A stretch of DNA of 64,000 nucleotides from a bacterium HR30 (GCA_002898795.1 BEIG01000001.1:192-64191); one strand, 5' to 3'. Numbered from the stretch's first letter, positions 307 to 64,000 are shown. The notes: generated by a model from the letters alone, not told the origin. A program made the numbers and translations.

Positions 307-482
307 CTGCCTACCTGGGAGCGCAGGTGTCCCTGGGAACGCAGGCATCCTCGCCTGCATCCCTACACCTCTCCACCCACGCCCCGATCTGCACGCGGGA
401 CCACCGCTGTGGTCCGCGCCCCTGTTTTCGCGTACGGGCCGTCCGCACGCCCAGCAACTTTCTCGCTTCCAGGCGTCCTCGC

Positions 483-1115
483 CTACGTCTCGGAGTGCAG
501 GCGGCGCCCGAGGTCATCCAGGAGGTGTTCCACACCTAAGCGAGCGAGTTCCTCGGCGCTGAACCAACGCGGACCGCCACGCCAAAACATCCACCAGTTC
601 AACAAGTTTGTGGCTAAGGGCTGCTGCGTCCGGTCGAATCTTCCTTGCCACAGCACCTTGCCGGATTTTACCGAAATCAAGGCTAGCCCAAACGACACAC
701 TGGCGGGTGCCTTGGCTCCGTACGGTCCACCTTGTCGTTCGACAAACCGCTCCACGGTGCCATACAAAACCGCGTCAGCCTTCACTGCCCGACCCAGGGC
801 CATGGCACGTTGCTGCAGCTCGAGGTTGCGACCCACGTTGCGCAAGGCCTCGAGCACGGTCAGATCGGGAACGAACCGAAACCGGGGTGATTCGGCAAGT
901 ACTGCATATACCTGCGCCGTCACGGTTTCCTCGGCTCCGGGTGGCAACCGGGCGGGGTCGGCGTTGTCGGCCCGATCCAAGGGGAGTACGGCGATCAATT
1001 CCACCGGTTCCTCCAAAGGAGGCCCCGTGCGCAACCAGGCGCAGCCGGCAAACACCGCTGCCCAGAAGCACAGCGCAAGTAAGCCCCCAACAACGATCGG
1101 TTTGCGTCTGTTCAT
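483..1115 (-). CDS. Hypothetical lipoprotein, directly downstream of aspS
   Basis: N-terminus MNRRKPIVVGGLLALCFWAAVFAGC carries a lipobox. No catalytic motifs. The stop lies 4 nt after the aspS stop. Confidence 0.6.
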   Translation of the reverse strand: MNRRKPIVVGGLLALCFWAAVFAGCAWLRTGPPLEEPVELIAVLPLDRADNADPARLPPGAEETVTAQVYAVLAESPRFRFVPDLTVLEALRNVGRNLELQQRAMALGRAVKADAVLYGTVERFVERQGGPYGAKAPASVSFGLALISVKSGKVLWQGRFDRTQQPLATNLLNWWMFWRGGPRWFSAEELARLGVEHLLDDLGRRLHSET

Positions 1116-1118
1116 GTT

Positions 1119-2924
1119 TCAGGTCGCCAGTTTGATGCCGAGTTCTCGCAGTTGCTTCGCATCGACTTCGCTCGGCGCATCGGTCAAAGGGCATACCGCT
1201 TTCTGGGTTTTGGGGAAGGCGATCACATCGCGTAACGATTGTGCTCCGGTCAGCAACATCACCAGGCGGTCGAAGCCCAGCGCGATGCCCCCATGGGGCG
1301 GAGCGCCGTAGCCCAAGGCATCGAGCAAGAAACCGAACTTTTGCCGGGCTTCTTCTTCGCCAATCCCAAGAAGGCGGAAAACCTTTTCTTGGATGTCCGG
1401 CCGGTGAATTCGGATGCTGCCACCACCGAGTTCCGTGCCGTTGAGCACGATGTCATAGGCCAAAGCTTTTACCCCGGCCGGATCGGCGTCGAGTCGGTCC
1501 CAATCTTCCTCCCGCGGCGAGGTGAACGGATGGTGCACAGCCACGTAACGCTTTTCCTCGTCGTCCCACTCCACCAGTGGAAAGTCCGTTATCCAGACGA
1601 ACTCCCACCGGTTCGAGGGAATCAGCTCCAGTTGGTGGGCGAGATGCAAGCGCAAGTGAGCTAACGACTCATTGACCACTTTGGGGCTATCCGCAACGAA
1701 CAGCAAGAGGTCGCCAATTTGCGCACCGCAGGCTTGCTCGATGGCAGCCTTTTCTGGTGCGGACAAGAATTTCGCGATTGGGGATTGCCAGCCATCGCTT
1801 TGCACGCGAACCCAAGCCACTCCCTTGGCGCCAAACGGGGCAACCACTTCGGGCAGGGCATCCAGTTCTCGGCGTGACAGACGTTCGCCCTGCGGCAGCC
1901 GCAACACCTTGACCATCCCGCCCGCGTCGAGCGCCGCGCGAAACACTTTGAACTCCGTCGTGCGAACTGCGGCGGACACGTCGCTCAGTTCCAAACCGAA
2001 GCGCAAATCAGGCCGATCGATGCCGTACCGGGCAATCGCCTCGTCGTACGTAAGCCGCCGAACCGTTTCTGGGAACTCCACTCCAGCCAAGGAACACGCC
2101 ACACGCAAAATGCCTTCGGTAACGCGCATGACGTCCTCCGGGCGCGCAAACGACATCTCCAAGTCAATTTGGGTAAACTCCGGTTGCCGGTCGGCTCGAA
2201 GGTCCTCGTCGCGAAAACAGCGGACGATCTGAAAATACCGATCGAACCCGGAAACCATGAACAGCTGTTTGAACAGTTGGGGCGACTGGGGCAGGGCGTA
2301 AAACTTTCCTGGGTTGACGCGGCTCGGCACGAGATAATCCCGTGCTCCCTCTGGCGTGCTTCGGGTCAGGAAAGGAGTTTCGAGTTCAATGAATCCTTCG
2401 CTGTCCAAGTAGTCGCGCACAGCTTTGGCCAACCGGTGGCGGAAGATGAACCGCCGCTGTACTTCGGGGCGGCGTAAATCGAGGTAGCGGTACTTTAGGC
2501 GCGTGGCTTCGGCGACCTCTTGTGCCCCATCGAGCGCGAACGGAAGGGGTCGGGAGCGATTGAGCACGCGCGCCTCTCGGGCCACGAGCTCCACTTCCCC
2601 AGTGGCAATGTTCAGGTTGACCGTATCGGGAGTCCGCTCGGTCAATACTCCACGCACCGCCACCACCGACTCGTTACGGAGCATCTCGGCAATGCGAAAC
2701 GCTTGGGGGCCGCGGGCTGGGTCGAACACCACCTGCACCACACCGGTTCGATCCCGCAAGTCAACGAAGACGAGCCCCCCGTGATCGCGCCGGCCGTCCA
2801 CCCAACCCATCAAGGTGAGCGTCTGGCCCGCATGTTCCCGCCGGAGCGTACCGCAGCAGTGGGAACGAACCCAATCGCCCAGTCCTTCGAGAGTCACTGA
2901 TTCGGTATGGTCTTGTTCCTGCAT
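1119..2924 (-). CDS. aspS: Aspartyl-tRNA synthetase
   Basis: Class II aaRS motifs FYALPQSPQLFKQ, FRDEDLRADRQPEFTQID and GGGSIRIH. Start taken at the internal ATG (cat at 2922-2924), giving about 600 aa. Confidence 0.95.
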   Translation of the reverse strand: MQEQDHTESVTLEGLGDWVRSHCCGTLRREHAGQTLTLMGWVDGRRDHGGLVFVDLRDRTGVVQVVFDPARGPQAFRIAEMLRNESVVAVRGVLTERTPDTVNLNIATGEVELVAREARVLNRSRPLPFALDGAQEVAEATRLKYRYLDLRRPEVQRRFIFRHRLAKAVRDYLDSEGFIELETPFLTRSTPEGARDYLVPSRVNPGKFYALPQSPQLFKQLFMVSGFDRYFQIVRCFRDEDLRADRQPEFTQIDLEMSFARPEDVMRVTEGILRVACSLAGVEFPETVRRLTYDEAIARYGIDRPDLRFGLELSDVSAAVRTTEFKVFRAALDAGGMVKVLRLPQGERLSRRELDALPEVVAPFGAKGVAWVRVQSDGWQSPIAKFLSAPEKAAIEQACGAQIGDLLLFVADSPKVVNESLAHLRLHLAHQLELIPSNRWEFVWITDFPLVEWDDEEKRYVAVHHPFTSPREEDWDRLDADPAGVKALAYDIVLNGTELGGGSIRIHRPDIQEKVFRLLGIGEEEARQKFGFLLDALGYGAPPHGGIALGFDRLVMLLTGAQSLRDVIAFPKTQKAVCPLTDAPSEVDAKQLRELGIKLAT

Positions 2925-2943
2925 CGAATCACCATCTTTTGCT

Positions 2944-4248
2944 TCACTCGTGCCGCGGGGCTTCCTCCGCAGACTCGCCAAGCGACCGTAAGTAAGCACG
3001 CACCTCCGGCACCGTCCAACGAAAACTCACAGCGCAGCGGTAGTCGCGCTTGCGCAACATATCGCGAACAGTAGCCGCCCCTGCCTCGAGTTCCGCCTCG
3101 CCAACGATGAACACAAAAGGTGCCCCGCTTTTGTCCGCTTGGCGCATTTGACTCTTCAGGCTACGGCTTGCTGAGCCCAACTCGATTTTCAAACCTTCCC
3201 GCCGCCACCGGCGGGCAACGGCCAGAGTCTGGAGCTCGGCCTCGGCATCCAGAGGGGCGACAAACGCTTCCAAAGGAGGTTCCAATTGCTCGTCGACCGC
3301 TGCGCCCAGAACCAGGAGCACCCGCTCGAGCCCCAGAGCGAACCCGATGCCCGGCACATCCGGGCCGCCCAAACTTTTCACCAAACCGTCGTAGCGCCCC
3401 CCGCCACCCACAGCGTTTTGTGCACCAAGCCCCTCTGCTTTGACCTCGAAGGCGGTGCGCACGTAGTAATCTAGACCACGCACGATGCGGGGAGCCACTT
3501 TGTAGGGTACGCTTGCGTGGTCGAGCATGTGACGTACGGCCGCAAGGTGCTCGCGACACGGTTGGCACCAAAAGCTTTCCATCGTCGGGGCAGTAGCCAT
3601 TAGCGCCGTGCAGCTCGCCACCTTGCAGTCGAGCAACCGCATAGGGTTGCGTTCGAGGCGCCGTTGGCAGTTCTCGCACAGGTGCCCGCGATGCGCTTCG
3701 CCGAAGGCGCGGATGGCCTCGCGAAATGCCGGGCGACAACGTTCGTCACCCAAGGAGTTCAACTCGATGGTGAACGAGCGCAAGCCCAATTCCACGAGAA
3801 GGTCGTGCAGCAACATCAACACTTCGGCGTCGATGGCCGGGTCGTCGCGTCCTAAGACCTCGACACCAATTTGATGAAACTGACGCAGTCGGCCTTTTTG
3901 CGGGCGCTCTCGGCGGAACATGGGCCCGAAGTAAAACAGCTTCGAGACCGGCTCCTGTTGCGCCAGTGCGTGCTCCACATAAGCCCGCACCACACCAGCA
4001 GTACCCTCGGGGCGCAAAGTGAGCGACGTACCGTCGCGGTCCACGAAGGTGTACATTTCCTTTTCCACGATGTCCGTCGTGTCGCCGATAGAACGGGTAA
4101 ACAACTCGGTCCGCTCTAGAATCGGAATTCGAACCTCGCGAAAGTGGTAACGAGCAAAAACCTCGCGGGCACGCTGCTCCACCCATGCCCAGCGCGCGGT
4201 CTCTCCCGGTAGGATGTCGTGAAACCCCTTAACGGAAGCGATTTTCAT
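2944..4248 (-). CDS. hisS: Histidyl-tRNA synthetase
   Basis: [17 protein letters not shown]-terminus and the GGGRYDGL class II motif. Start ATG at 4246-4248. Forms a hisS-aspS tandem. Confidence 0.95.
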
Positions 4249-4321
4249 TTTAGGACCTTGCGCTGCAAGGTGCGGCTCGGTAACAGAGGGGTTTCTGCAA
4301 GTCAACGAACGGTCCACGCCC

Positions 4322-7300
4322 GTGGAGCACAAACGTCAGCTCACACGACGGTTTCGGCATCGCATCCCAATCGGTGCCGCGCTTCGTTGGCTCTGGATGC
4401 TTCTCCTGGTGGGGCAAGCTCCGATCACGTCGGCAGCGGGCGAAACCGTGTGCTGCCTTTGCATCTTCACCAACGAACAGAACGAGGTGTTTTCCTTTTG
4501 CGGTATGTCCGACCCGCAAGGGAACTGCGCGCCCGGGTGCGACCCTGTGACGAATGCCGACTGCGTCCAGGGCACGTGCGTGTTGTTCACGCCGACACCA
4601 AGTTTTACCCCGACTTTAACCCCGACACCCACCCTGACGCCCACTGCCACTCGCTCGCACACGCCCACGGATACACCTCTTCCCACGGCAACGCCCACGC
4701 CCACGCAAACCAACACCTCGACTCACACCCCTACCCGCACACCGACGCGCACGCCTACACCGACCAACACCTTGACCCCCACGCGCACTCTCACCCCGAC
4801 GATTACCCAAACCCCCACCATAACTCCCACACCGACAATCACCCCAACGCCAACGGCAACCCCAGGGCAATCTGACTGCTGCCAAGCGGTGCTCGTGGGG
4901 CAGCTCGTGTGTGCTGCTCCGGCCAATCACGACTGTGGGCCGGGGGTCATTGTTTACGGTGCCACATGCCTGGAGACGGGCGCTTGCGCTACCTTCACGC
5001 CCACTTTCAGCCCGACACTAACGCCCACCGTCACGCGAACACCGACGTTCACTCCTACCCCGAGCCCTACCGCCACGTTCACGCCAACGCTGGGAGGCAA
5101 CGACTGCTGCCAAATCATGTCGGGTTCGCAACTCTTTTGTGGAGTGCCTGCCGGTGCCGCCTGCCCTTCTGGGGCTACTCCGGTTTACGGTGCCCTGTGC
5201 ATAGCCGGAGCTTGCATCACCATGACCCCGACCATCACACCCACACCGACGATTACGCCAACGCCCACCAATACGCCAATCGCTTTTCCGACCTCGGGCC
5301 CCAACTGCATGGCGCTGGCACCGAACGGCCCGGCTGAGGCTCCCGCAAACTTTGCTTTCAACTGCGCGCAGAATTGGCAGTGCGTCGGCGGGCACGATGG
5401 CGACGCAACTTACGTGTACTTCAACCAAGACACGGCAGCGCTCGGCCCCAGGATCGACATGTACCAGATCGAAGACGTCGTCCCACGTACGGAACGGATC
5501 ATCTCGGTGGACGTTCACGTCGTGTCGCGGTCGCTCGCCGGCAGCCCGCGCAGCACTGCGGCCCCTTTGCTGCGGGGCGGAACGAGCACGATTTTCGAGG
5601 GTCCGGCGCGGCAACTGACTACGCAGTACGTGGACTACTCCCATCGTTTTTGCCAGCGCATCGCGCCTACGCCCGGACCGCCGCCTTGTTTGAACCCTGC
5701 CTTTGGTGCCGAGTGGACCTGGGCTGACATCAATCGCATGCAAGCGGGCGTATCGCACCAAGTCGGCAGCGGGGACACTGTCCGCACCACCAGCGTATGG
5801 GTGGAAGTTTGCTGGGAAGTGCCCACGCCAAGCCCCACACCAACGAATACACCCTCGGCAACGCCAACGGTCACATTCACGTTTACTCCTTTGCCGACGC
5901 CAACTCCTACGGAAACACCAACGCTGACGCCAACCCCCACCATTACGCCAACCCCCTCGCCCACACCGACATATACACCCACGCTAACTCCCAGTATCAC
6001 GCCCACGTTCACGTTTACCCTGACTCCGTCGCTCTCGCCGACCCCGAGCTCCACTCCTTCGGCAAGCCCATCCAATACGCCCACTTCGTCATTCACCGCC
6101 ACTTCCACGCCGTCGAGTACGCCGACGCATACCAGCACGCGATCGCCAACCCTAACCGCAACATTTTCTTCGAGCCCAACGCCAAGCTCCACGGCAACGC
6201 CAACCCCCTCGGCAACCTCGACCGCAACCCGTACACGCACCGTCGCACCCAGCCCAACACAAAGCCCCACTGCAAGCCCCACGGCCACGCAAACCCCGAT
6301 ACCGCCAAGCCCAACTGCAACCGCCACGAACACCGTAACCCCGAGTGCTACGGGCTCTCCCCCCACAGCCACGCCGACGCCCGCACCGAGAATTCCGTTC
6401 CTTTTTGGATTTGGATCCGGAGGGAATGAGTCCCCTTGTGCCTTCGGTCTCGCTAGCTCCTTGTTCTCCGAAGGCGCGAGCACTCAACCCTTGACGCAAA
6501 TCGAAACTCAGGACCCCCTGTTCCAGCGCCAGCGCTTTCAGGTGATTTACGTGGGACCCGACCTCGGTTTGGACGATTACCTGGTGTTACAACGTTTGGC
6601 TGCACCTGGTGGAGTGATCGAACGGTTCGTGGCCGACGGAGGCGTGGCGGTGATCCATGCTGGCGGCCGCTTCAACGATCAGAACAACATTGCCCCGGGC
6701 GGGGTCGGCTTCGCTCGCGTGGGCAGCCACAATGCGGAGACGATCGAGACACCGACGCACCCGTATTTCACGGGCGAAGGATTTGGTGGCGTGCCACTGA
6801 CCCAGGACGATTTTGCAAACTGGGAGAACACCGACGAAGGCATTCTGACGAATCTTCCCGCCGACGCCACCGTGCTGCTCCGGAACAGTGATGGGCCGAG
6901 CATGGCCGAATACGTTTACGGCAATGGCCGGGTGATCGTGAGTACGCTGGCCTTTTGCTGGGATGGCCGTCCGCGCTCCACCGGCGTAGCGACGACGAAC
7001 CTGCTGCGTTACGCGCCTTTCTTCCTAGGCAGCGCCCTGACTCCGGCTCCCACGGTCACACCTACCGGCAGTCCGACTCCCACGTTTACCCGCCCGGCCA
7101 CGCGCACCCCGACGCCAACGCGCACGCGTACACCAACCCGAACCCCGAGCCTGACGCCGACGGCTTCCTACCTTGTCGGAGATGCCGACAAGAATGGCGT
7201 CGTCGACGGGAACGACCTCCTCTCGCTTCTTGCCATGTTGTTCCAGGAAATTCCCGAGGTTCCGGAAGCTGACGTGAACCGCGACGGCCGACTTACCGCC

Positions 7301-7351
7301 GCCGATATTTCCGCCTTACTCGAACTTCTGGACGCAGTGGGCCGGCGTTAG
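4322..7351 (+). CDS. Large secreted modular protein (1009 aa): signal peptide, three 6-Cys modules, Thr/Pro-rich linkers, two globular domains, C-terminal type-I dockerin
   Basis: GTG start. N-terminus [23 protein letters not shown] is signal-peptide-like. TPTPT linker repeats throughout. C-terminus [18 protein letters not shown]...[21 protein letters not shown] matches the duplicated Ca-binding dockerin loops. Confidence 0.8.
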
Positions 7352-7382
7352 GGCTGCAGGAGAGCCGGCAACCGAGCTGCCA

Positions 7383-7814
7383 CTAGCGTGGGCGGCTGCC
7401 GCCGCCGGTGAGCGGCGCCCTCGGTTTCGGGGGCCCAGACTTTTCCACGAATTCCAGCAAGTCCCCTTCGAGCGAGCGTACTTGCTCGATGATCCTTCTC
7501 GCCAGAGGACGAAGCTCTGCTTTTTCTTCGGCCTCCGCCAGCGAGTACTGCTTGGAAGCTAATGTCCGGGTCTTCCCATCTCGTTCCTCAGCCACCTCGG
7601 TGGCTTCGAAGGTGACGACCGTGTCCCCACCAGGGCTATTCTGTACCGTGAACGTCGTAATCAGGCGCTTTTTCTGCGCCGGCGCCGGTGTGGGCGCGGG
7701 AGTAGGCTCGAAGGGGCCGAGGTCCAAAATCACGGGTGGTGGCCCGAGGCGAGGTTCCGCCACTGCAGCCACCGCCCACAGCCAAACGACAAACGAGAAG
7801 GTTTTTCCGTACAT
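7383..7814 (-). CDS. Small secreted hypothetical protein with a PTPAPTPAPA linker
   Basis: Signal peptide MYGKTFSFVVWLWAVAAVA. Convergent with the giant dockerin protein gene. Confidence 0.5.
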   Translation of the reverse strand: MYGKTFSFVVWLWAVAAVAEPRLGPPPVILDLGPFEPTPAPTPAPAQKKRLITTFTVQNSPGGDTVVTFEATEVAEERDGKTRTLASKQYSLAEAEEKAELRPLARRIIEQVRSLEGDLLEFVEKSGPPKPRAPLTGGGSRPR

Positions 7815-8031
7815 GTCCGCCTACTCCATCGCAGCGCTTGTACCAGCACGACAGCGCCGGAACAACGCACGTCCATTCGAAGCGCTCCCCGGAAGGCACA
7901 GGGTACTTACCCAACGCCCCTGGCCGCAATCTTCTTAGGCGCCCCATCATCGCGTGGATCAATCTTTGGCGCCACGCCATGATCGTCCCGCCACTTCTGG
8001 TGCCAGCGCTGGTGCGGGTGCGGCCAAGAAC

Positions 8032-8952
8032 CTAGTGCCGCCACCACCGCCTGACTTCGCGCTCCCACAAAGCAACTTCGGGAGGCAACCAGGCCACAAT
8101 CGGTTCGCGCCGGAACCACGTAAGCTGCCGCTTCGCGAAGCGGCGGGTGGCTCGCGCCATTGCAGCAATCGCTTCGTCGAGTGCTACTTCGCCCCGCACG
8201 TAAGCGCCAATTTCCCGGTATCCCAGGCTTTGCAACGCAGGAAGGTGCGCCGAGTAGCCACGATCGTAAAGGCTGCGCACTTCCTCGACGAAGCCCGCTT
8301 CGATCATCTGGTGGCAACGAAGGTCGATGCGGCGGTAAAGCTCCGCCCTCGGCAAATCGACGGCAAGCAGCACGACTTCGTAGCGCCCAGTGGCAAACCG
8401 GTGCTGAGCCTGCCACGAGCTCATGGGCTGCCCAGTCTTGTGATAAACCTCCAGGGCACGAATGAGTCGGACATAATCGTGCGGGTGCAACCGGCGCGCA
8501 CTCTGCTCGTCGACCTCTGAGAGTTGTCGATGCAAAAAGCCCGGCTCCGCACGCTCCCTGGCCATCCACTGCGCCCGCAGAACCGGATCGCGCGAAGGCC
8601 CGGGGAACAAACCACCCCGGAGCACCCGCACGTAAAGGCCCGTTCCACCCACCACCAACACGCGGCGACCACGGCCACGTACCTCCGCGATGGCCTCGTC
8701 GGCCAACTGGAGAAACCGGGCGCAGTGAAATTCCTCGTCAGGGTCCACCACGTCCACGACGTGATGGCGCACCCGTTGCCGCTCAGCCTTCGTCGGCTTT
8801 GCACTCCCGATGTCTAAACCGCGATACACCTGCCGCGAGTCGGCATTGATAATCTCCGCGCCGAACCGTTCGGCGAGTTCGAGGGCAAGCCCGGTCTTGC
8901 CCGCAGCGGTCGGGCCAACGATGGCAAGAATTGGCTCGGAAGGTGGATTCAT
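8032..8952 (-). CDS. miaA: tRNA dimethylallyltransferase
   Basis: P-loop ILAIVGPTAAGKTGLALELA with an IPPT-family body. The ATG at 8950-8952 overlaps the upstream ABC ATPase stop as ATGA. Confidence 0.9.
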   Translation of the reverse strand: MNPPSEPILAIVGPTAAGKTGLALELAERFGAEIINADSRQVYRGLDIGSAKPTKAERQRVRHHVVDVVDPDEEFHCARFLQLADEAIAEVRGRGRRVLVVGGTGLYVRVLRGGLFPGPSRDPVLRAQWMARERAEPGFLHRQLSEVDEQSARRLHPHDYVRLIRALEVYHKTGQPMSSWQAQHRFATGRYEVVLLAVDLPRAELYRRIDLRCHQMIEAGFVEEVRSLYDRGYSAHLPALQSLGYREIGAYVRGEVALDEAIAAMARATRRFAKRQLTWFRREPIVAWLPPEVALWEREVRRWWRH

Positions 8953-10016
8953 CTGCGTGTTCGGCCTGCGCTCCAAGACGGACCGTCGAGTGGTGGATCG
9001 ATCCAATGAACTGCGCTCGATTTGAAAGTAACAAACACCGACTCCCCCACCGCAAGGCCCAATTCCGCAAACGCACGTGCGGTGATGCGGGCCACGAGCT
9101 CCACACCGCAGTCCACGTGGATGAAAAAGCCCGATTCGCTCCCTTCCACCCGAGTGACCACGCCGGCCAAGCTATTGCGCGCGCTCGAGTGCAGTGGCTG
9201 CCGCGACAGGAGCAAGCTTTCGGGATCGATCGCCACGGTCGCCGGTCCTTCACCCAAGGGACGGGGCGGCACCACGATGTGCAACCGCCCGGTATCAAGC
9301 ACTAGATCCTCGCCGTGCTGGCGCAGGCGGCCGCGCACGACATTGACAAAGGGGAACGGCACCATGCGGCCACCGTCGAGGCTAATGATTTGATCCGCCA
9401 GCCGATACGCCTGGTCGAGAGCGTGGGTGGACAGCACGACCGTACGCCCTCGAGCCACCAACTCCCGCACCAACGACTCGAAAACGGGCACGAAATCCCG
9501 ATCGAGGTTGGCCGTAGGCTCATCGAACAAAAAAATCGGCGGATCGATGGCCAGCGCTCGCGCAATGGCAACCCGTTGCGCTTCGCCCCCAGAAAGCTTC
9601 CACGCCGGCCGGTGGGCGTAATGTGCTAGACCTACTCGTTCCAAAGATTCCCACACACGTGTACGATCGTACTGCCCGCGTACGCGCAGTCCGTAGGCCG
9701 CGTTCGCGAAGACACTGCGACGAAACAAGCACGGACGCTGGGCAACGTAAGTGGCTACCCGGCACAGCCGCTGCCCGTTCGTGGCAAGGGGCGCGTACGT
9801 GGTCCCGAGGCACTCGAAGTACGAGGCCACCGCAACGCGCAATCCGGCCAACACCTCGAGGAGCGAGGTTTTGCCTGCACCGTTCGGGCCCACCACTGCC
9901 GTCACCTGCGAGGCAGGAACTTCCAGTTGGTCGATCTGCAAAAGGGTGCTGGGCCCCTCGACGACGCGCAACTCCTGCAGGAAGAATGCGAGGGGCGCTG
10001 TGGTCACGGTAGCCAT
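8949..10016 (-). CDS. ABC transporter ATP-binding protein with a C-terminal TOBE/MOP domain (ModC/TupC/WtpC-like)
   Basis: Walker A GPNGAGKTS, signature LSGGEAQRVAIARAL, Walker B IFLFDEP. C-terminal SARNSLAGVVTRVE fits the TOBE motif. Confidence 0.85.
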   Translation of the reverse strand: MATVTTAPLAFFLQELRVVEGPSTLLQIDQLEVPASQVTAVVGPNGAGKTSLLEVLAGLRVAVASYFECLGTTYAPLATNGQRLCRVATYVAQRPCLFRRSVFANAAYGLRVRGQYDRTRVWESLERVGLAHYAHRPAWKLSGGEAQRVAIARALAIDPPIFLFDEPTANLDRDFVPVFESLVRELVARGRTVVLSTHALDQAYRLADQIISLDGGRMVPFPFVNVVRGRLRQHGEDLVLDTGRLHIVVPPRPLGEGPATVAIDPESLLLSRQPLHSSARNSLAGVVTRVEGSESGFFIHVDCGVELVARITARAFAELGLAVGESVFVTFKSSAVHWIDPPLDGPSWSAGRTRR

Positions 10017-56278: not shown

Positions 56279-57613
56279 CTAGGGCGTCGGGCTCGCACTC
56301 GCTTCCGGCGAGTCGTGCAGCGCCCTTCGATCGGTGCTTGGCGCTCTGGGGTTGCTTTCGTCCGCGCTCTTCCCCCCACCCGCGGGTTTTCCAGAAGGCC
56401 CGAACTCCTGAAACAGCTTCACCACCAGCGACGCTACCTCCCCCGGCTTGGCCGTGAGCACCTCCCGCCTCAATTGCTCGAAGCGGCGCGGCGACAAACG
56501 ATGGGCCAGCTCTATCCGAGCTCTCAAATCCCGAACGGTGTCGTCTCTTACGAACCTCACAAACTCGAGTTCCTTTTCGCTCATCTCGCCCAACTTGGGG
56601 CCATACAACCGAGCAAGGTCGAAGTACGTGTCGTAATCGGCGTAGAATTTCGCTTTGATGAGCAACCACACTAGCTCATTTTCCGGATCGGCCAGCAGAT
56701 TCCGCCACGCCCTGCTGCAAGCCTGATCCCCAGGTTCCTCGCCAAAACAACGGGCAGCCATGTAATAGGACAACGCTAACGGAGCCGCCAGGTGGGGGCT
56801 ACGTCTTTCCACTTCTCTTGTAAAGGCGTCCCGAAACGCTCCGCACTTTTCTACGGTGCTGTCAGCAAGGCAAGAGGCTAACTTTTCGCCCACTTCAGGG
56901 CCAAGCTCGCTCAACGATCCTCTGGGAATTCGCAAGCTAAAGGGGCGCGGGGTTAGAGCTTGCCCGTTCTCGACCCAGGCCTTCCTTGCCATGTCGGCCC
57001 AGACTACCTGTTCGCGAAGCAACTCCACAAGTCCCGGGTCGCCATGTTCTTTCGCCTCTTCCCATTGGCGCACCGTTTCGTTCTGCAAGAGTTCGAACCG
57101 TTCGGGGTCCAGGCGGGCCGCAACCTCGAAGACGTACCTAGCTCTCACCGGGTCATTACCGCCCACCTGCGCCCGCCGCACCGCCCGGAGGTAGCTCCAA
57201 AAGATCTCCGTTTGCCGCTTCTTCAAAAGAGCCAAGTAACGTTCCCCCATCTGTCTTAGCTTGTCCTTCCAAACCTCTTGCTCCTTCATATCCCATTCGG
57301 GTGGGCTGTCGAAAAAGGGGTAATGATAGATGGCTCGCTGGATGGCATCGTAATGGTCCAAGGCACAATACGGGAAGAGCGCCCCGGAGCGCGTGCACAT
57401 TTCGAACTGGAGCCGGTACACCACCAGTGCCGAAACAAAGCCATAGCCGGACAGTCCATGGAGCGGGCGCTCCTGCAGCGGCTTTTTCAGCCATCGTTCG
57501 AGGAGCTTCACGGAGAAGTCAACGCTGGAATCATCGCTCGCCCCACCTCGTTGAGGACCGCCCGCAAGTCCTGCAACCGCTACCAGCAACAGGGGCAAAA
57601 GCAAGCGCCTCAT
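56279..57613 (-). CDS. Secreted hypothetical protein
   Basis: Signal peptide MRRLLLPLLLVAVAGLAGG and a strong AGGAGGTG RBS. No known domain. Confidence 0.55.
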   Translation of the reverse strand: MRRLLLPLLLVAVAGLAGGPQRGGASDDSSVDFSVKLLERWLKKPLQERPLHGLSGYGFVSALVVYRLQFEMCTRSGALFPYCALDHYDAIQRAIYHYPFFDSPPEWDMKEQEVWKDKLRQMGERYLALLKKRQTEIFWSYLRAVRRAQVGGNDPVRARYVFEVAARLDPERFELLQNETVRQWEEAKEHGDPGLVELLREQVVWADMARKAWVENGQALTPRPFSLRIPRGSLSELGPEVGEKLASCLADSTVEKCGAFRDAFTREVERRSPHLAAPLALSYYMAARCFGEEPGDQACSRAWRNLLADPENELVWLLIKAKFYADYDTYFDLARLYGPKLGEMSEKELEFVRFVRDDTVRDLRARIELAHRLSPRRFEQLRREVLTAKPGEVASLVVKLFQEFGPSGKPAGGGKSADESNPRAPSTDRRALHDSPEASASPTP

Positions 57614-57675
57614 TGTCGTGTGCACCTCCTGGAGACTACCACACTCCCTCGTCACTGCGCATAGTACAACTGCAC

Positions 57676-58083
57676 CTAGTCCCACCGGCAACCAGGGCAC
57701 TCAGCACGCGTACCCTTCAGCACCCATTTCGGCACCCACGTCTTCCCATATGGCGGGCCCCAATCGTATTTGAAATAGTCCGCCTCGTTGCCCGGGGCCG
57801 GCAGGGATGCCGCCGTCAAACTGCGCACCGATATAAAATGCGTCGGCCCTTTCGGGTTCCCGATACCCGTTCTCAGGAACTCCTCGGCCAAGGCGAAATC
57901 CTCCGCGGTCGGAACGAGCTTCGGGTTCGGGCTCCTGCAGCCAACGTAAGCGCTGCACACATCCGCTACACTGGTAGTTCCCCTCCGTGCCATGCGGTTG
58001 AGCACCGTTTGCAAGATCGCTCGCCGCTCCTCCGCGCGGCACTGCTGCGAGCCACATTCGTTGGCCAGCAACCTCCCCAACAT
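57676..58083 (-). CDS. Putative cell-wall hydrolase (SleB/CwlJ Hydrolase_2-like)
   Basis: AILQTVLNRM and GPTHF resemble the Hydrolase_2 LNR and GATHY motifs. Weak support. Confidence 0.45.
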   Translation of the reverse strand: MLGRLLANECGSQQCRAEERRAILQTVLNRMARRGTTSVADVCSAYVGCRSPNPKLVPTAEDFALAEEFLRTGIGNPKGPTHFISVRSLTAASLPAPGNEADYFKYDWGPPYGKTWVPKWVLKGTRAECPGCRWD

Positions 58084-58440
58084 TTTTTCTCGTCCGTGTC
58101 CAACCCCGTCCCGGGCGACGCATCGCTCATCGTATCCGTGCGCTGCGCCACCTCCATTGCAGCGGAACCAAGGCATTATGTGCCAGCGCGCTAGCAGCCC
58201 GGCGACGGCGGGAATCGCTACATCCTAACGCGTCTTCCCACCGCCACCCTCTGCCTGCGCTCGGTCTTTGCTCGCTGGAGCGCCCCGGGGAGTAGCGTCG
58301 TCTCCACCAGGCCCCTCCGAGCCTCCACCCTCCCACCCAACACCCAACTCGGAAAACTCTCTCCCCCGCCGCCGCTCGGTCAAGGCATCAACACAGGCCC
58401 ACCTACCTCCAACAGCCGGTAGCCCAAGGCGCGGGCCTAC

Positions 58441-59060
58441 CTAGCTAGTCGGGGTCGGAGAAGGCTCGGGCCCACCGAGCCGGAACGGCGGGTAGCCCAA
58501 GGCGCGCTTGATTTCCTCCCACTCCACCAACTTCAGACGACCTCGAGCGTCGATAAAAAGGTACCCCGTGTCCCCACGACAGGGACCTACCGTGCCAAGC
58601 CTGTAGTACATCTCTCGCTGCAGCGTCTTGGGTCCCTCCAGCACCTCGTACCCTTTCGGAGCTTCCCCCTCCAGCACAAACTCGCCGCCCCACCCCGGAC
58701 GGTACCGTAACCGCACGGTGCTGGCAAAAAAAACCGGCCTGACCTTTCTGATCTGAGGCGCAGCACCGTACTCGTGTTTGCGGTATGCAAAGGCTCGGGA
58801 TGGGGATCGGCCGGGTCGTATGGGTAGAACATCAAAACCGAAAGGCCCGACGGGCGGGCATCTTCCCAGAGCTTGCGAACGCCCCTCACCTCCAGCACGA
58901 TCGTCAGGTCGTCGAGCTGCTTCACCGTGCAGTAGTAGGGAGGGATGCAACTCCCCACCGGCAACAGCACCGCCAAAAGCAACCCTACGAGCCCGAGGTG
59001 CCCACGCTTACCACGGTTACGGTCCAGCCACACGGCGAAACTCCCAGTACAACCGTTCAA
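58441..59060 (-). pseudogene. Lipoprotein gene split into two frames at an A8/T8 homopolymer (frameshifted or phase-variable)
   Basis: The N-terminal frame (lipobox LLPVGSC) runs from 59060 to about 58740. The C-terminal frame runs from about 58735 to 58441. The two frames meet at the T8 tract (plus-strand A8 at 58726-58733). Peptide repeats STVLRLRSERSGRFF and STVRLRYRPGWGGEF flank the tract. Confidence 0.5.
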
Positions 59061-59349
59061 TCGTACGCGCGTCTAGCCCGGTCTCTCGGTCCAAGAATGG
59101 CGCGCGCTTTAACACGAAATAATCCCCCACCACGGCAGCTTGCTGTTCGAAGTTGAGATCCCAAAAACTTCCGCGGAACGATGGCCCAACGACGTAGGGA
59201 TCGCTCCCCGTCAACCACGCCCTGAGGTGCAGCCAGGAGCCGCGGAAGTTGTCGAGCAAGCCGTGCTGTCGCTGCCAAATGTACACGCCCTCGTGCACGA
59301 GTAAACTCAAGCGTCGTACCGGCGTCCGCCCTGAGTATTCCGACGTCAC
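59017..59349 (-). CDS. Doubtful small ORF (GTG start, no RBS)
   Basis: Open frame only. It overlaps the lipoprotein start, and the tandem repeats abut its start codon. Confidence 0.2.
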   Translation of the reverse strand: MTSEYSGRTPVRRLSLLVHEGVYIWQRQHGLLDNFRGSWLHLRAWLTGSDPYVVGPSFRGSFWDLNFEQQAAVVGDYFVLKRAPFLDRETGLDARTIERLYWEFRRVAGP

Positions 59350-59350
59350 A

Positions 59351-59382
59351 TTGATTTCGTAATTTGTTGATTTCGTAATTTG
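59351..59382. repeat. Exact 16-bp AT-rich tandem direct repeat, 2 copies (TTGATTTCGTAATTTG)
   Basis: Two perfect adjacent copies in a low-GC intergenic stretch upstream of the frameshifted lipoprotein gene. Confidence 0.85.
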
Positions 59383-59707
59383 ACCTCACCTGCCCGTCGG
59401 CAAATCTTTCGCCGAAGAAACCTTCGTCTAGCTTTACCCTTTCCCAATCGACACATTCCCCACGGATTCCTCTAGAGCTTTCCGCTCCTCTTCCGTCAGC
59501 GGCCGCGGCTTCGGATCAACCCCCTGCTGACACCTTTCTGGATCCCGCGCGGGGCAGTCGCCACCGGCTCTGCTTCCCAGCCTTGCCTCCACGGTGAAGT
59601 CTGCACGCGCTGCGCTCTGTGCTGTTACTCAAGAAATCTCTAGCGCGAAGACGCTTCCGTGCTGTCCCATCGTTTCGTTTACGGATTTCCCACCGGTGTG
59701 CCCGATC

Positions 59708-60103
59708 TCATCGGCCAAAGCGCCTCTGAACGATTGTGTAGTCCTTTAGGTCGATCGTGTAATGCACCCCTCCACCGAAGGTTAACGGCGTCCTCCCTTC
59801 AAAGATGTCGACTTCAACTTCGTCACCCTTTTTTCTGTAAAGCACACCATGGACCCGCGTCGCTAGCTCTGGAGCTGAGTAACCTCGGTCCCAATGCTTG
59901 TTCAACCGTTGGTAGTCCGTCATCGCCACCAGTAACGCAGCAGCGATTTGCGCCGAGAGAATGCCCGAGTCGCTCACGCGCTCTTCTAGCTGAGCTTGCG
60001 AGACCCGCGGATCCAGAAGCAACACAGCGAGCAGGGTGGTGCATAGGGTGATCACCCCCGCTAACCTTGCCAAGCACCTTCGACCGACTTCATATACCCT
60101 CAT
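59708..60103 (-). CDS. Small secreted or membrane-anchored hypothetical protein
   Basis: N-terminal hydrophobic segment LAGVITLCTTLLAVLLL. Confidence 0.45.
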   Translation of the reverse strand: MRVYEVGRRCLARLAGVITLCTTLLAVLLLDPRVSQAQLEERVSDSGILSAQIAAALLVAMTDYQRLNKHWDRGYSAPELATRVHGVLYRKKGDEVEVDIFEGRTPLTFGGGVHYTIDLKDYTIVQRRFGR

Positions 60104-60897
60104 CTGATCGGCACCCTCCCAACGTAGCGCCCCAGCGTGAACTTGGGCTCGGGCAGTTCACCTGCAGGATAAAACCGCAAATTTCCACCCGGGGTTCCAA
60201 GGTAAGACCCGAGAAAGCCTGGATACCTCGCTCCGAGCTGGTTCGTCGCCCACACATCCGCCGGGGAAAAATACTCGAAGCCCGTTCTTGCACCGTGAGT
60301 GTGCCAAACCGCTAAGGGCCGTGCACCCTCTGGGAGGAACGCCAGCGCATCGTAAGGCGATGGACCCGCGCACACGGCGGCTCCGCCACACGGAGCCCCG
60401 AGGACGCCGGTAGTCGAGGAAATGCCCTCAGGCCCTTCAAAGATGATTCCTAAGTATTCCGTGTCGCTTTGAACCGAGGGCGGGTTGTGCAAGGCAACAG
60501 CATCTCTAGCTACTTCATCGACCTTGGCCACAGTCGGATGATTGGGATCGATGAGGCTACCGCTGGAAGCAACATCCGTCCTGCGTCCTCCGCCCAACGT
60601 CACTTCGCCGTCCGCTCTGCCACCTCCGTTGCCCGGGCCTTTCTGCGCCTCCCGTGCCATTTCGCTGCCAACGCCGTTAGCACGGGTACCACGGGCACCA
60701 CGGCTGCCACCCGCAGTGAACACAGCTCCCGGAGAGAACGGTTCCCCGCGGGCGCGCCTGCGTTCACCGATCGCGCGTGCTTGCGGCCAAGCGTATGGAG
60801 TGCGGTAGCGGTGCTCCCGCAAGCCCGGCCGCAAGGCAGGGGCTGAAACGGGCCACAGGGGCATGGGTGGTACGAATGGGCGCGCGGTGCGTACCAT
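60100..60897 (-). CDS. Protein with a C-terminal JAB/MPN-like (DUF4329-type) domain and a Gly/Arg-rich N-terminal region
   Basis: C-terminal motif WHTHGARTGFEYFSPAD (H-x-H...S-x-x-D). The N-terminal 100 aa are low-complexity, so the true start is uncertain. Confidence 0.45.
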   Translation of the reverse strand: MVRTARPFVPPMPLWPVSAPALRPGLREHRYRTPYAWPQARAIGERRRARGEPFSPGAVFTAGGSRGARGTRANGVGSEMAREAQKGPGNGGGRADGEVTLGGGRRTDVASSGSLIDPNHPTVAKVDEVARDAVALHNPPSVQSDTEYLGIIFEGPEGISSTTGVLGAPCGGAAVCAGPSPYDALAFLPEGARPLAVWHTHGARTGFEYFSPADVWATNQLGARYPGFLGSYLGTPGGNLRFYPAGELPEPKFTLGRYVGRVPIR

Positions 60898-61097
60898 GGC
60901 AGGGCTTAGCAGCGCGGCCGCACGCTATGGCGGCGGCTGAAGCGGCTGTGCTCCTGCCCGAGGTGATCCACACCATCCTGCTGTTACCCCCAACCAAGTT
61001 CAGCGGCGCACGAACTCATGGCGCCTGCGTGTCCGCGCAAACTAGGACGGCGGTGCCACTATGCTCCCACCACGTTGGATGTAGGCATCACGCCCTC

Positions 61098-62180
61098 CTA
61101 CCGGCCGTTGGCGCCGCGCTCCGCTAGCGCTGCATCGTCGGGTTTAGCGTGCTGCGGCGTCGCCTCACTCCCTCTGGGCCCATTCCCCCTTCTCTCCACC
61201 TTCGCACTCCCTGTGCCTGCAGTACGCCTCTTTCTCTTGTGCTGCTCCTCCTCTCCCAACAAAATCTCCCGCTCGATACCTCGCGCCCGGATCTGCTTGA
61301 TCTCGTACGCCTTGGCTTCCGCGTTCTCTGAAGGGGTGTATCCGGTTCCGTAGGTTGCTCGAGGCGTGACAAAGTATCCGTGTTCGTCCGTCTGGTACCG
61401 CTCCTCTTCTCGCTGTGGATCTTCGTCGTACTGGCATAACCACCAGCAGTGCAAGTTGACCTCGAGGATCTCGAAAGGGTCCTTCACCAGCACCCTCGTG
61501 CTGTCCTGGTCCACATTGAAGTCCTCGATCACGACGCGAACCTTGTTCGGATAATACCGCTTCTCCCCACGCCTCGCGCTCAATTCGTTAATCCTGACGC
61601 ACCAGTTCCGCACCGACAGCACAACCCTCTCCACCATCCACTCCTTTTCCGGCGACGGCGGATCGATCGGCGGCTCCTCGCGCGTGCAACGCCAAGGCAC
61701 CCTCACCGTGAACGACACCTTCTCCCGGCCCTGCAGTAAGCTGTAAGATTTTCGATAGAGTTTGTCCCTATCATCGCTAAGCCCCTCCAGAAGATGCGCG
61801 GCCACAAGGGCGTGCCCACGCCACACGACTAGGTAGTAATACCTATCCTCCAGCTCGCCCGGCCTGCACGTTCCAAGGCAGGGTCCGCAGATTGCCGCGT
61901 AACGCACGCGCGCATAGAACACACCCACCCTCGCAGGATCCTCCACCGCCTCCGCCACCAGCGGCACGCCGACACGGATAAGGTCGCACGGGGGGGAGCC
62001 TCCAACCCACCGCGCCTCCCGACAAAGGTCACGTTCCAGAGCGCTGCGCAACAGCGGCACATGCTGCTCTAACCGCCCAAGCTCTGCCCCAACAACCATT
62101 GCCGGCCACGCCCCGAGCCACCACGCCAGTAACCCCACTACGGCCAGGTGCTTGCTGCCCGTTCTGCTCGGAGACATCAT
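61098..62180 (-). CDS. Secreted hypothetical protein
   Basis: Signal peptide LAVVGLLAWWLGAWPAMVVGA and a charged C-terminal tail. Confidence 0.5.
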   Translation of the reverse strand: MMSPSRTGSKHLAVVGLLAWWLGAWPAMVVGAELGRLEQHVPLLRSALERDLCREARWVGGSPPCDLIRVGVPLVAEAVEDPARVGVFYARVRYAAICGPCLGTCRPGELEDRYYYLVVWRGHALVAAHLLEGLSDDRDKLYRKSYSLLQGREKVSFTVRVPWRCTREEPPIDPPSPEKEWMVERVVLSVRNWCVRINELSARRGEKRYYPNKVRVVIEDFNVDQDSTRVLVKDPFEILEVNLHCWWLCQYDEDPQREEERYQTDEHGYFVTPRATYGTGYTPSENAEAKAYEIKQIRARGIEREILLGEEEQHKRKRRTAGTGSAKVERRGNGPRGSEATPQHAKPDDAALAERGANGR

Positions 62181-62487: not shown

Positions 62488-63189
62488 TCATCCCTCGCGT
62501 ACGCTCTGAACGTGTTGCCGGGTCCCGCAAGGCACCTGGCGCAGCCTCTCGAGGTCTCCCTCCCATTCCAACTTCGTCTCCTCGGAATACTTGTCCACCG
62601 ATACCCGCAGCTTCACGGCGCCCTGTGCATCCGCGTACTCCCACTGAAAGACGTAGTACCAGTCCTCCTCCGCCACCTCCCCGCCACCAGGGCGCATCTG
62701 CGACGCCAGATAACGCTGCGTAACAACACCCCAGTCTTCCTCCGGCACCAACTTCGGCCCCTGAAATGCATCCGGGTTGAAGCAAAGCCGCCTGGCCGAT
62801 CGCTTGAGCTCCAAGATCGCCCGTTGCAAAGCTCGCCCCGGGCTGCATGGCCGCGGGTATCGTGACACTCTCCAAAGACTTCCCTCGTGCGCAAAATCCA
62901 CTTCTCGATAGTAGCGGTCCACCAACACCCAGAGCTTTACTCTCCCCCGCGGATCGGAGTACTCCCACTCGAACAAATACGCCCAGTCGCACTCCCGTGC
63001 CAATTTCGGCCCGCGAAATATGTTTAGGTCTACCGCGCGCTCCTCCGCCACTCGCCGCGCCTCCGCAATCGCTAGCTTCTCCGCTTCCGCTCTTGTGGCG
63101 GGGTAAAGAACGTAAAACAAAATGTTCAGCCAGCGAAAGCCTACGGCAAGGAAAAGGAACGCCGCGGCAATCTTCATCGCTCGCCACAT
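62488..63189 (-). CDS. Membrane-anchored or secreted protein with two internal FRGPKL...WEY-D modules (paralog A)
   Basis: N-terminal TM KIAAAFLFLAVGF. Two ~55-aa repeats: NIFRGPKLARECDWAYLFEWEYSDPRGRVKLWVLVD and AFQGPKLVPEED...YVFQWEYADAQGAVKLRVSVD. Confidence 0.6.
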   Translation of the reverse strand: MWRAMKIAAAFLFLAVGFRWLNILFYVLYPATRAEAEKLAIAEARRVAEERAVDLNIFRGPKLARECDWAYLFEWEYSDPRGRVKLWVLVDRYYREVDFAHEGSLWRVSRYPRPCSPGRALQRAILELKRSARRLCFNPDAFQGPKLVPEEDWGVVTQRYLASQMRPGGGEVAEEDWYYVFQWEYADAQGAVKLRVSVDKYSEETKLEWEGDLERLRQVPCGTRQHVQSVREG

Positions 63190-63358
63190 GGTCCCGAACC
63201 TCGCCCCGCCCCTGTTGGGCTTGCGCGCTCCTCGATCATCACGTCAGCAACTGACCCCACTGGCCAGCTTGGCACCCCTGACAGGCTAAGCCACCAGCCT
63301 TTCACCCAGACGCGCCCCACTCGTGCAACCCCTTCCCGATCGTTCGCTCTCAAGGGAT

Positions 63359-63960
63359 TCACCACGAGCTGCAGGGCACCCGGCGCAGCCTGTCGAGGTC
63401 TCCCTCCCATTCCACCGCGGTCTCCTCGGAGTACTTGTCCAGCGATAACCGCAGCTTCACGGCACCCTGTGCATCCACGTACTCCCACTGGAAAACGTAG
63501 TTCAAGTCGTCCTCTTCCACCAGCTTCGGCCCCCGAAATCTACGTGGATCGAAGGAAAGCCGCATCGCTGCCAGCTTGAAATGCACCCTTGCCAGCTCCT
63601 CCGCTCGTTCGAGCCAAACAGGCGGTATCCGTGTGAGTCTGTCCCAGTCGCCTGGGAACGAAGCCTCGGTCCACCGGTCTTTCTTGCCAACTAAAACTTG
63701 CAGCTCGGCTCTACCCCAGGTGTCCGAATACTCCCAAACGAACATGTAATTCTCGGGATCGTCCTGCACCAACTTGGGCCCGCGAAACATGCTTAGGTCA
63801 AATCCCCCCCCCAACCTGCCGCTCGATTTGCTTGGTCGATCGCTAGCTTCTCGGCTTCCTCCTTCGTAAGCGGGTAAAGGAAGTCGTGTACAGTGTTGAC
63901 CCCGTGAAAGGCTAGCCCAAGCAAAAGCAACACTGCCACAACCTTCATTGCCCGGCGCAT
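63359..63960 (-). pseudogene. Paralog B of the FRGPKL/WEY-D protein, interrupted by a G9 homopolymer frameshift
   Basis: N-terminal frame MRRAMKVVAVLLLLGLAF...AIDQANRAAGW. The G9 tract is plus-strand C9 at 63803-63811. The downstream frame reads GGFDLSMFRGPKLVQDD...YVFQWEYVDAQGAVKLRLSLD. Ten G would restore a single ORF. Confidence 0.55.
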
Positions 63961-64000
63961 AGTCTCGAACCTCACGGCGGCACAGGCACCGTGCCACGGA

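Follow-up and report, generated by a model that had tools for sequence, protein, structure and literature searches.

Two tandem paralogous genes, A and B, lie at one end of a 64,000-nt stretch of DNA from bacterium HR30 (GCA_002898795.1, BEIG01000001.1:192-64191; "the window" below denotes this whole stretch), and we describe them here as candidate immunity genes of a polymorphic toxin. Both are read on the minus strand (Table 1). The original prediction, made from the sequence alone, had described two paralogs in tandem that share an N-terminal anchor and each contain two copies of a module. BLASTP confirms this arrangement (A and B are 47% identical, E=2e-43, and off-diagonal alignments with E=2e-14 and 1e-7 expose the two-module internal repeat), and the coordinates given for the genes were right. 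Hydropathy and flanking charge likewise support an N-terminal anchor in both proteins. What had been missed was the minus strand, a frameshift in B and the toxin-immunity context that explains the genes.

The first 55 codons of B lie in the frame of an open reading frame (ORF) at 63793..63975, and the remainder lies in the frame of 63359..63997. The shift occurs at a run of nine G residues (G9), and the frame is restored if this run is read as G10 or G7. A and B are both two-module genes, as originally proposed, but B is not the single open frame it had been taken for. In GenBank, only the C-terminal 143 amino acids (aa) of B are annotated (HRbin30_00066, GBD24753.1; P0002). The numbering of the two entries, HRbin30_00064 for A and 00066 for B, indicates that the depositors annotated a feature 00065 between them, for which the sole candidate we see is a 55-aa plus-strand ORF at 63122-63289. 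B may be interrupted only because a homopolymer was misassembled or misread in this metagenome-assembled genome (MAG), in which case both paralogs would be intact and expressed. This explanation, which concerns the state of B only, has in our view somewhat less than an even chance. The frameshift falls exactly at the longest homopolymer of the window, the sole G/C run longer than 7, a single added G yields a full-length protein of 200 aa that aligns end to end with A, and the source genome is a MAG. However, the G9 tract is also the most mutable site of gene B, and a true slippage mutation, leaving a pseudogene or an on/off switch, is equally expected. The tract could therefore be an assembly error in the MAG, a true slippage mutation or a switching tract.

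Exactly four copies of the module, and no others, were found by tblastn in the window, two each in A and B. They share 16 invariant positions (F, GPKL, Y-F-WEY-D, G, L, G, R, P). An ORF at 58441..58950, considered as a carrier of a related module on account of a 21-nt repeat, was rejected, as tblastn finds no module there. When A was modeled alone with AlphaFold2, residues 2-28 formed a helix followed by two similar helix-plus-strands units joined by disordered linkers, with a predicted local distance difference test (pLDDT) score of 70.9. Modeling of A module 1 with an alignment of 25 sequences raised pLDDT to 95.3, with a predicted template modeling (pTM) score of 0.84, and gave a confident fold, for which the original prediction had proposed AlphaFold as a check: an 18-residue helix, four antiparallel strands and a short C-terminal helix. 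The module thus spans about 80 aa rather than the ∼55 aa first estimated. Foldseek searches of the PDB with either model returned no significant match. Structural scores were highest for a designed cystatin fold (4r80; 7.3), the PepSY domains of YpeB (5boi; 6.7), the fungalysin propeptide (4k90; 6.5) and the PepSY domain of FoxB (7abw; 6.0), with DotI/VirB8-like domains at ∼5-6, a type VI immunity lipoprotein (4kt3_B) at 5.3 and the colicin M immunity protein (2xgl) at 4.8. As modeled, the module has a generic cystatin/PepSY-like helix-on-sheet fold without a close structural relative. Units of this kind often serve inhibitors and immunity proteins.

We built a profile of the four modules and scored it against 1.84 billion representative proteins, which returned 30 proteins at E<1e-3, 11 of them at E<1e-10. 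Most family members are 105-135 aa long and consist of a short basic N terminus, one hydrophobic segment and a single module; two modules are present in A, B, P0003 (214 aa), P0004/P0007 and P0031. The family is marked by the motifs E-A-x-x-x-A in the helix, F-D-x-x-x-F-x-G-P, Y-x-F-x-W-x-Y-x-D-x-x-G and G-D-L-E-R-L-R. In all 25 members analyzed, a Lys/Arg-rich N-terminal flank precedes the hydrophobic segment and a neutral or acidic flank follows it, as judged by hydropathy and flanking charge. Since they follow the positive-inside rule for an N-in, C-out topology, the module is predicted to lie outside the cytoplasm.

The original prediction recognized no known family in A and B, and no well-known domain has emerged: neither protein has a match past the curated threshold in Pfam, NCBIfam or PADLOC, and the sole library match is at chance level (HYR_4C, E=0.085, 13.5 bits against a cut-off of 27). 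When 26 family members were compared with Pfam, we obtained scattered single-member chance matches (best E=0.0032), with no Pfam family common to two of them, and the family profile found nothing among PDB sequences. A first word-indexed homolog search returned only the two HR30 proteins themselves. The genome collection we searched holds no HR30 MAG and no detectable relative; a protein-pattern scan of it gave 38 false candidates, and a hand-made degenerate DNA pattern gave 12 chance matches and 0 family members. No family member was found in viral contigs (DNA pattern) or in plasmids (tblastn).

Contigs of family members were then taken from metagenomes, and about 15 related loci were compared. 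In 10 of them the family gene directly follows, on the same strand, an unannotated toxin-like domain of ∼150 aa (gap of ≤11 nt, or overlap). A profile of this partner domain matches in front of the family gene in L001, L002, L004, L005, L006, L022 and L025, and also in L036/L037 (E=3.4e-60). The two genes are separated by 7-10 nt or overlap in L001, L002, L004, L022, L025 and L036/L037; in L005 and L006, the toxin tail lies just upstream of the family gene at the contig edge. The partner carries the motifs Y-F-E-V-R-P-P-D-x-D-G-Y-L-T-L-G-E-A-x-W-Q-W, L-V-H-G-S/T-x-T and N-F-D-x-K-P-W, with H-G, N-F-D-x-K-x-W and G-x-G invariant, and ends at its stop codon in G-P-G-x-x-F-x-I-x-F-R-G-S-V-x-x-P-P. 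The same domain (hidden Markov model E-values of 1e-86 to 3e-60) is preceded by an RHS core in L022 and by hydrophobic segments in L004 and L036, and is called on short proteins in L001, P0034 and P0036. Remnants of it precede the family gene in L008 (48 aa, E=7e-6) and L024 (18 aa). A homolog search with the partner domain returned only 3 short proteins, which carry no other domains. As far as their sequences tell, the immunity module and the partner domain are two rare families, absent from every library searched and now defined by alignments.

Locus L022 places this pair in a recognizable setting. Its partner domain (in 4744-6009) comes directly after a core domain of the RHS repeat-associated type (TIGR03696, E=3.7e-22); 7 nt separate the partner stop codon from the family gene, and another 9 nt separate that gene from an orphan RHS core fragment. 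On the upstream side, an RHS-repeat protein ends in a colicin E5 ribonuclease (tRNase) domain. Such an order is standard for RHS toxin/immunity/orphan arrays. In it, the family occupies the slot of the immunity gene for a variable toxin C-terminal domain. Along this soil/sediment contig, the RHS/colicin E5 protein occupies 165-2060 and is followed by two orphan RHS core fragments, at 4744-6009 and 6359-7150, that differ in their tips, with a Y1 (IS200-like) transposase gene between the RHS elements. A hydrophobic Gly/Ala/Ile-rich stretch is found a few dozen residues before the partner domain in L004 (2-553), L036 (2-589) and L022 (4744-6009, residues ∼205-225), whose trunks all differ, and the partner toxin may insert into or cross a membrane. 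In L024, the orphan family member and its 18-aa toxin-tail remnant lie in an island (361-9833) rich in mobile-element and toxin-antitoxin genes, with relaxase-, integrase-, AbiE-, HipA-, ParE- and HigB/HigA-like genes recognized by reading the predicted proteins alone.

The same junction is found at the edge of the window. On the minus strand, its last 27 nt read RGTVPVPP-stop, 11 nt before the ATG of B, and match the partner tails RGAVPIPP (P0036), EGSVPIPP (L022), FRGAVAIPP (L036) and RGSVAVRP (L001), all directly followed by a stop codon. At the DNA level, the junction CCGCCGTGAGGT is common to the window and to L036, where the full junction reads CCGCCGTGAGGTGCAAGATG, compared with CCGCCGTGAGGTTCGAGACTATG in the window. 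L036 carries P0038, which shares a 90% cluster with the closest relative of A and B, P0003. Because the final 27 nt match both the partner-domain tails and the L036 junction, we conclude that the window ends in a toxin gene and not, as had been suspected, within a longer array of A/B-like genes. By sequence, B thus occupies the place of the cognate gene, with A following as a second copy after 169 nt.

Gene context decides the function here: the conserved gene pair, the RHS array of L022 and the toxin-tail junction of the window make A and B probable immunity proteins. Taken together with homology, architecture, predicted fold and topology signals, this context makes it likely, in our judgment, that the two proteins are anchored in the membrane, face the periplasm and confer immunity to a polymorphic toxin that attacks the cell envelope with its C-terminal domain. 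Binding, neutralization, the site of action and the identity of the protecting copy we infer as follows. The toxin, encoded immediately upstream of B, would end in a C-terminal domain of ∼150 aa. By binding this domain in the periplasm, or on the outer surface of the inner membrane, the membrane-anchored module would block it and so shield the producer, or a sibling under attack. With the immunity protein exposed in this way, an envelope target for the toxin would be implied. Protection of this kind is known from the colicin M immunity protein and from type VI immunity proteins of the periplasm. B, the cognate copy, would be broken or phase-shifted at its G9 tract; A is intact and has a recently homogenized C-terminal module in common with B, and thus probably serves as the functional immunity gene of this assembly.

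Several observations weigh against this assignment. Three or four of the related loci (L003, L007 and L023/L030) show no trace of the partner domain by profile search. Neither a toxic activity nor a homolog of the partner is known, and it has no relative in Pfam, NCBIfam or the PDB. Several metagenome contigs show it as a separately predicted protein of ∼155 aa and not as the end of a large toxin. The link to RHS proteins comes from a single locus, L022. In HR30, the toxin gene is seen as 8 codons and a stop, its trunk, RHS or other, lying beyond position 64000. The family copies without a toxin in L003, L007 and L030, and the copy in the island of L024, also count in favor of an immunity role, such occurrences being usual for immunity genes.

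An accessory factor of the toxin, such as a membrane-anchored chaperone, maturation factor or export helper that is co-inherited because the toxin needs it, would show the same tight pairing with the partner domain. PepSY-like and propeptide-like folds can be intramolecular chaperones or inhibitors, and the hydrophobic stretch before the partner domain suggests that both proteins may meet at the membrane. In RHS and type VI secretion systems (T6SS), however, the known accessory genes (Eag/DUF1795, DUF2169, DUF4123) lie upstream of the toxin, and the gene directly downstream of the variable C-terminal domain encodes immunity. The family is located on this downstream side, and its orphans outlive the toxin, of which remnants (L008, L024) or nothing (L003, L007, L030) are left, which fits protection; we consider an accessory role improbable. 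Marginally less probable still is a generic periplasmic role of the PepSY-like or cystatin-like kind, for example as protease inhibitors or envelope regulators, in a non-antagonistic operon with the partner. No member matches Pfam PepSY even at E≤1, no other Pfam model is matched consistently, and Foldseek finds nothing significant. Moreover, the partner follows an RHS core within an array that includes another orphan and an RHS protein with a colicin E5 tip, which is hard to explain outside toxin biology.

The history of the putative immunity genes can be read from their modules. In a distance tree, the first modules of A, B and P0003 (A1, B1, P0003-1) separate from the second modules (A2, B2, P0003-2), and therefore the internal duplication is older than the split between A and B. 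In the lineage of the metagenome proteins P0004, P0007 and P0031, the module was duplicated independently, the two modules of P0004/P0031 being mutual closest relatives in the tree. The independent origin of the two-module form in two lineages hints that it may be the covalent version of a dimer. A direct DNA repeat of about 128 bp and 90% identity had been noted between A and B; over these coordinates we find 89.1% identity, and the full tract extends to 151 nt at 87%. A codon-by-codon comparison of A and B gave third-position identities of 0.80-0.93 over the last ∼50 codons and of 0.2-0.6 elsewhere. As identity at this position is high only near the 3' end, the 3' module appears to have been homogenized recently, whereas the remaining parts of the genes are old. 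The similarity thus extends even to synonymous sites and fits gene conversion or recent recombination, in line with the exchange between copies originally suggested.

Module 2 of A carries an insertion of 24 codons in the β1-β2 loop that is exclusive to A, being found neither in B nor in any other family member aligned. The insertion region (residues 156-175) is modeled with low pLDDT. It is bounded by two 12-nt direct repeats, ccagtcctcctc and ccagtcttcctc; loss between them would return the module to the canonical loop length of B and the other members. The B-A intergenic region resembles the sequence upstream of B only in its final ∼25 nt, which precede the ATG of A (GAGGTTCGGGACC, the ribosome-binding region). 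A toxin remnant, which would be a sign of a displaced cassette, was sought throughout this region, and none was found.

A more far-reaching proposal combines several of these elements: the partner would represent a new envelope-acting toxin activity, the module that neutralizes it a new cystatin-like immunity fold whose normal working form is a dimer, G9/G10 slippage would switch B on and off, and gene conversion would keep the back-up copy A matched to the toxin. An immunity fold working as a dimer would explain the two independent origins of covalent two-module proteins (A/B/P0003 and P0004/P0031). We regard the full combination as unlikely.

With this assignment, two "hypothetical proteins" of an uncultured hot-spring lineage become a testable toxin-immunity pair. 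The predicted outward-facing orientation of the immunity protein points to an envelope target for the toxin, and new antibacterial mechanisms can usefully be sought among toxins of this sort. The locus also illustrates how immunity genes may evolve, with two independent internal duplications, a tandem duplication, a conversion-like homogenization of one module and a copy lost or switched at a homopolymer.

Members of the order HRBin30 of the phylum Binatota have been recovered from thermal springs (PMC8262859); judging by its name, bacterium HR30, a MAG without classification at NCBI, probably belongs to this order. The contig with A and B measures 91,819 bp. The first ∼55 kb of the window hold ordinary chromosomal genes (Asp- and His-tRNA synthetases, a GlmS-type amidotransferase, a GH31 glycosidase, ABC transporters and an SDR protein). 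From ∼56 kb onward, the ORFs lie on one strand and match no family, except for one DUF4329 protein, which is also the only match past the curated threshold (Pfam, NCBIfam, PADLOC) among the seven ORFs neighboring A and B. We take DUF4329 to be an RHS-associated domain, and its presence nearby adds to the case for a toxin system; together with the 131-aa ORF that overlaps its stop codon, this protein could form a second toxin-like/immunity-like pair downstream of A. The minus-strand ORFs at 56279-62180, between the chromosomal genes and the A/B pair, otherwise have no Pfam, NCBIfam or PADLOC match; they include proteins of 473 and 360 aa with signal-peptide-like N termini and ORFs of 166, 169/157 and 110 aa, and the block may be an island of orphan cassettes. 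The 110-aa ORF (59017-59349, minus strand) has no Pfam match at E≤1 and contains the motif LVHEGVYIWQRQHG, which resembles the H-E-x-x-H-x-x-Q of DUF4157-type metallopeptidase-like toxin domains, with Tyr replacing the second His. Neither a tRNA gene nor a promoter or terminator signal above chance level was found.

Table 1. Features of the A/B locus and its surroundings, numbered from the first nucleotide of the window
Feature	Position	Strand	Description
Paralog A	62488..63189	-	Intact 233-aa ORF, two modules; GenBank HRbin30_00064, GBD24751.1
N-terminal hydrophobic anchor of A	63115..63171	-	aa 7-25, after MWRAMK; hydropathy and flanking charge; predicted N-in, C-out
Module 1 of A	62842..63093	-	aa 33-116; helix, four antiparallel strands, short helix (predicted)
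Module 2 of A	62521..62841	-	aa 117-223; alignment, tblastn, AlphaFold2
Insertion in A module 2	62659..62730	-	72 nt (24 codons), β1-β2 loop; from alignments
12-nt direct repeats bounding the insertion	62659-62670, 62731-62742		11/12 identical, spaced exactly 72 nt
Homogenized 3' tract in A	62527..62677	-	Putative gene-conversion tract; 151 nt, 87% identity to the partner tract in B
Homogenized 3' tract in B	63371..63521	-	Partner of the A tract 62527..62677
B-A intergenic region	63190..63358	-	A begins 169 nt past B
Paralog B	63359..63960	-	Start ATG 63960, stop 63359; two modules, frameshifted
G9 homopolymer in B	63804..63812	-	Frameshift site; C9 on the plus strand; read from sequence
Spacer, toxin stop to ATG of B	63961..63971	-	11 nt; GAGG ribosome-binding-like motif overlaps the stop
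3' end of partner toxin gene	63972..64000	-	8 codons and stop (RGTVPVPP-stop), after 2 bases of a probable Phe codon
ORF with DUF4329 domain	60100-60897	-	Pfam E=5.7e-11
131-aa ORF	59708-60103	-	N-terminal hydrophobic segment; start overlaps stop of the DUF4329 ORF (ATGA)

Comparison with known systems separates the A/B family from those suggested by its fold. None of 26 family members scores against the PepSY domain (PF03413; YpeB, FoxB) even at E≤1, and the motifs F-x-G-P, Y-x-F-x-W-x-Y-x-D-x-x-G and G-D-L-E-R-L-R are specific to the A/B family. Periplasmic type VI immunity proteins, such as the lipoprotein forming chain B of the Pseudomonas protegens effector-immunity complex (4kt3), have no sequence similarity to it, and those parts of the window that were examined showed no type VI genes. 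The colicin M immunity protein Cmi (2xgl, 4aeq) differs in showing no sequence relationship to the family and a low structural score, and the partner toxin domain is unrelated to colicin M by sequence. The closest parallel is found in the toxin/immunity/orphan loci of RHS (YD-repeat) proteins, a system type already well known, and the known logic of polymorphic toxin systems is left unchanged by our findings. Unlike in typical loci of this kind, neither the toxin domain nor the immunity family matches a Pfam, NCBIfam or PADLOC model, and in several relatives the toxin domain is found on short proteins or after a hydrophobic segment, with no visible RHS part. L022 nevertheless has the characteristic order of a variable domain after the RHS core, a small same-strand gene a few nucleotides on and then orphan cassettes; the window has the same junction between toxin end and immunity gene, and the family shows both tandem and orphan immunity copies.
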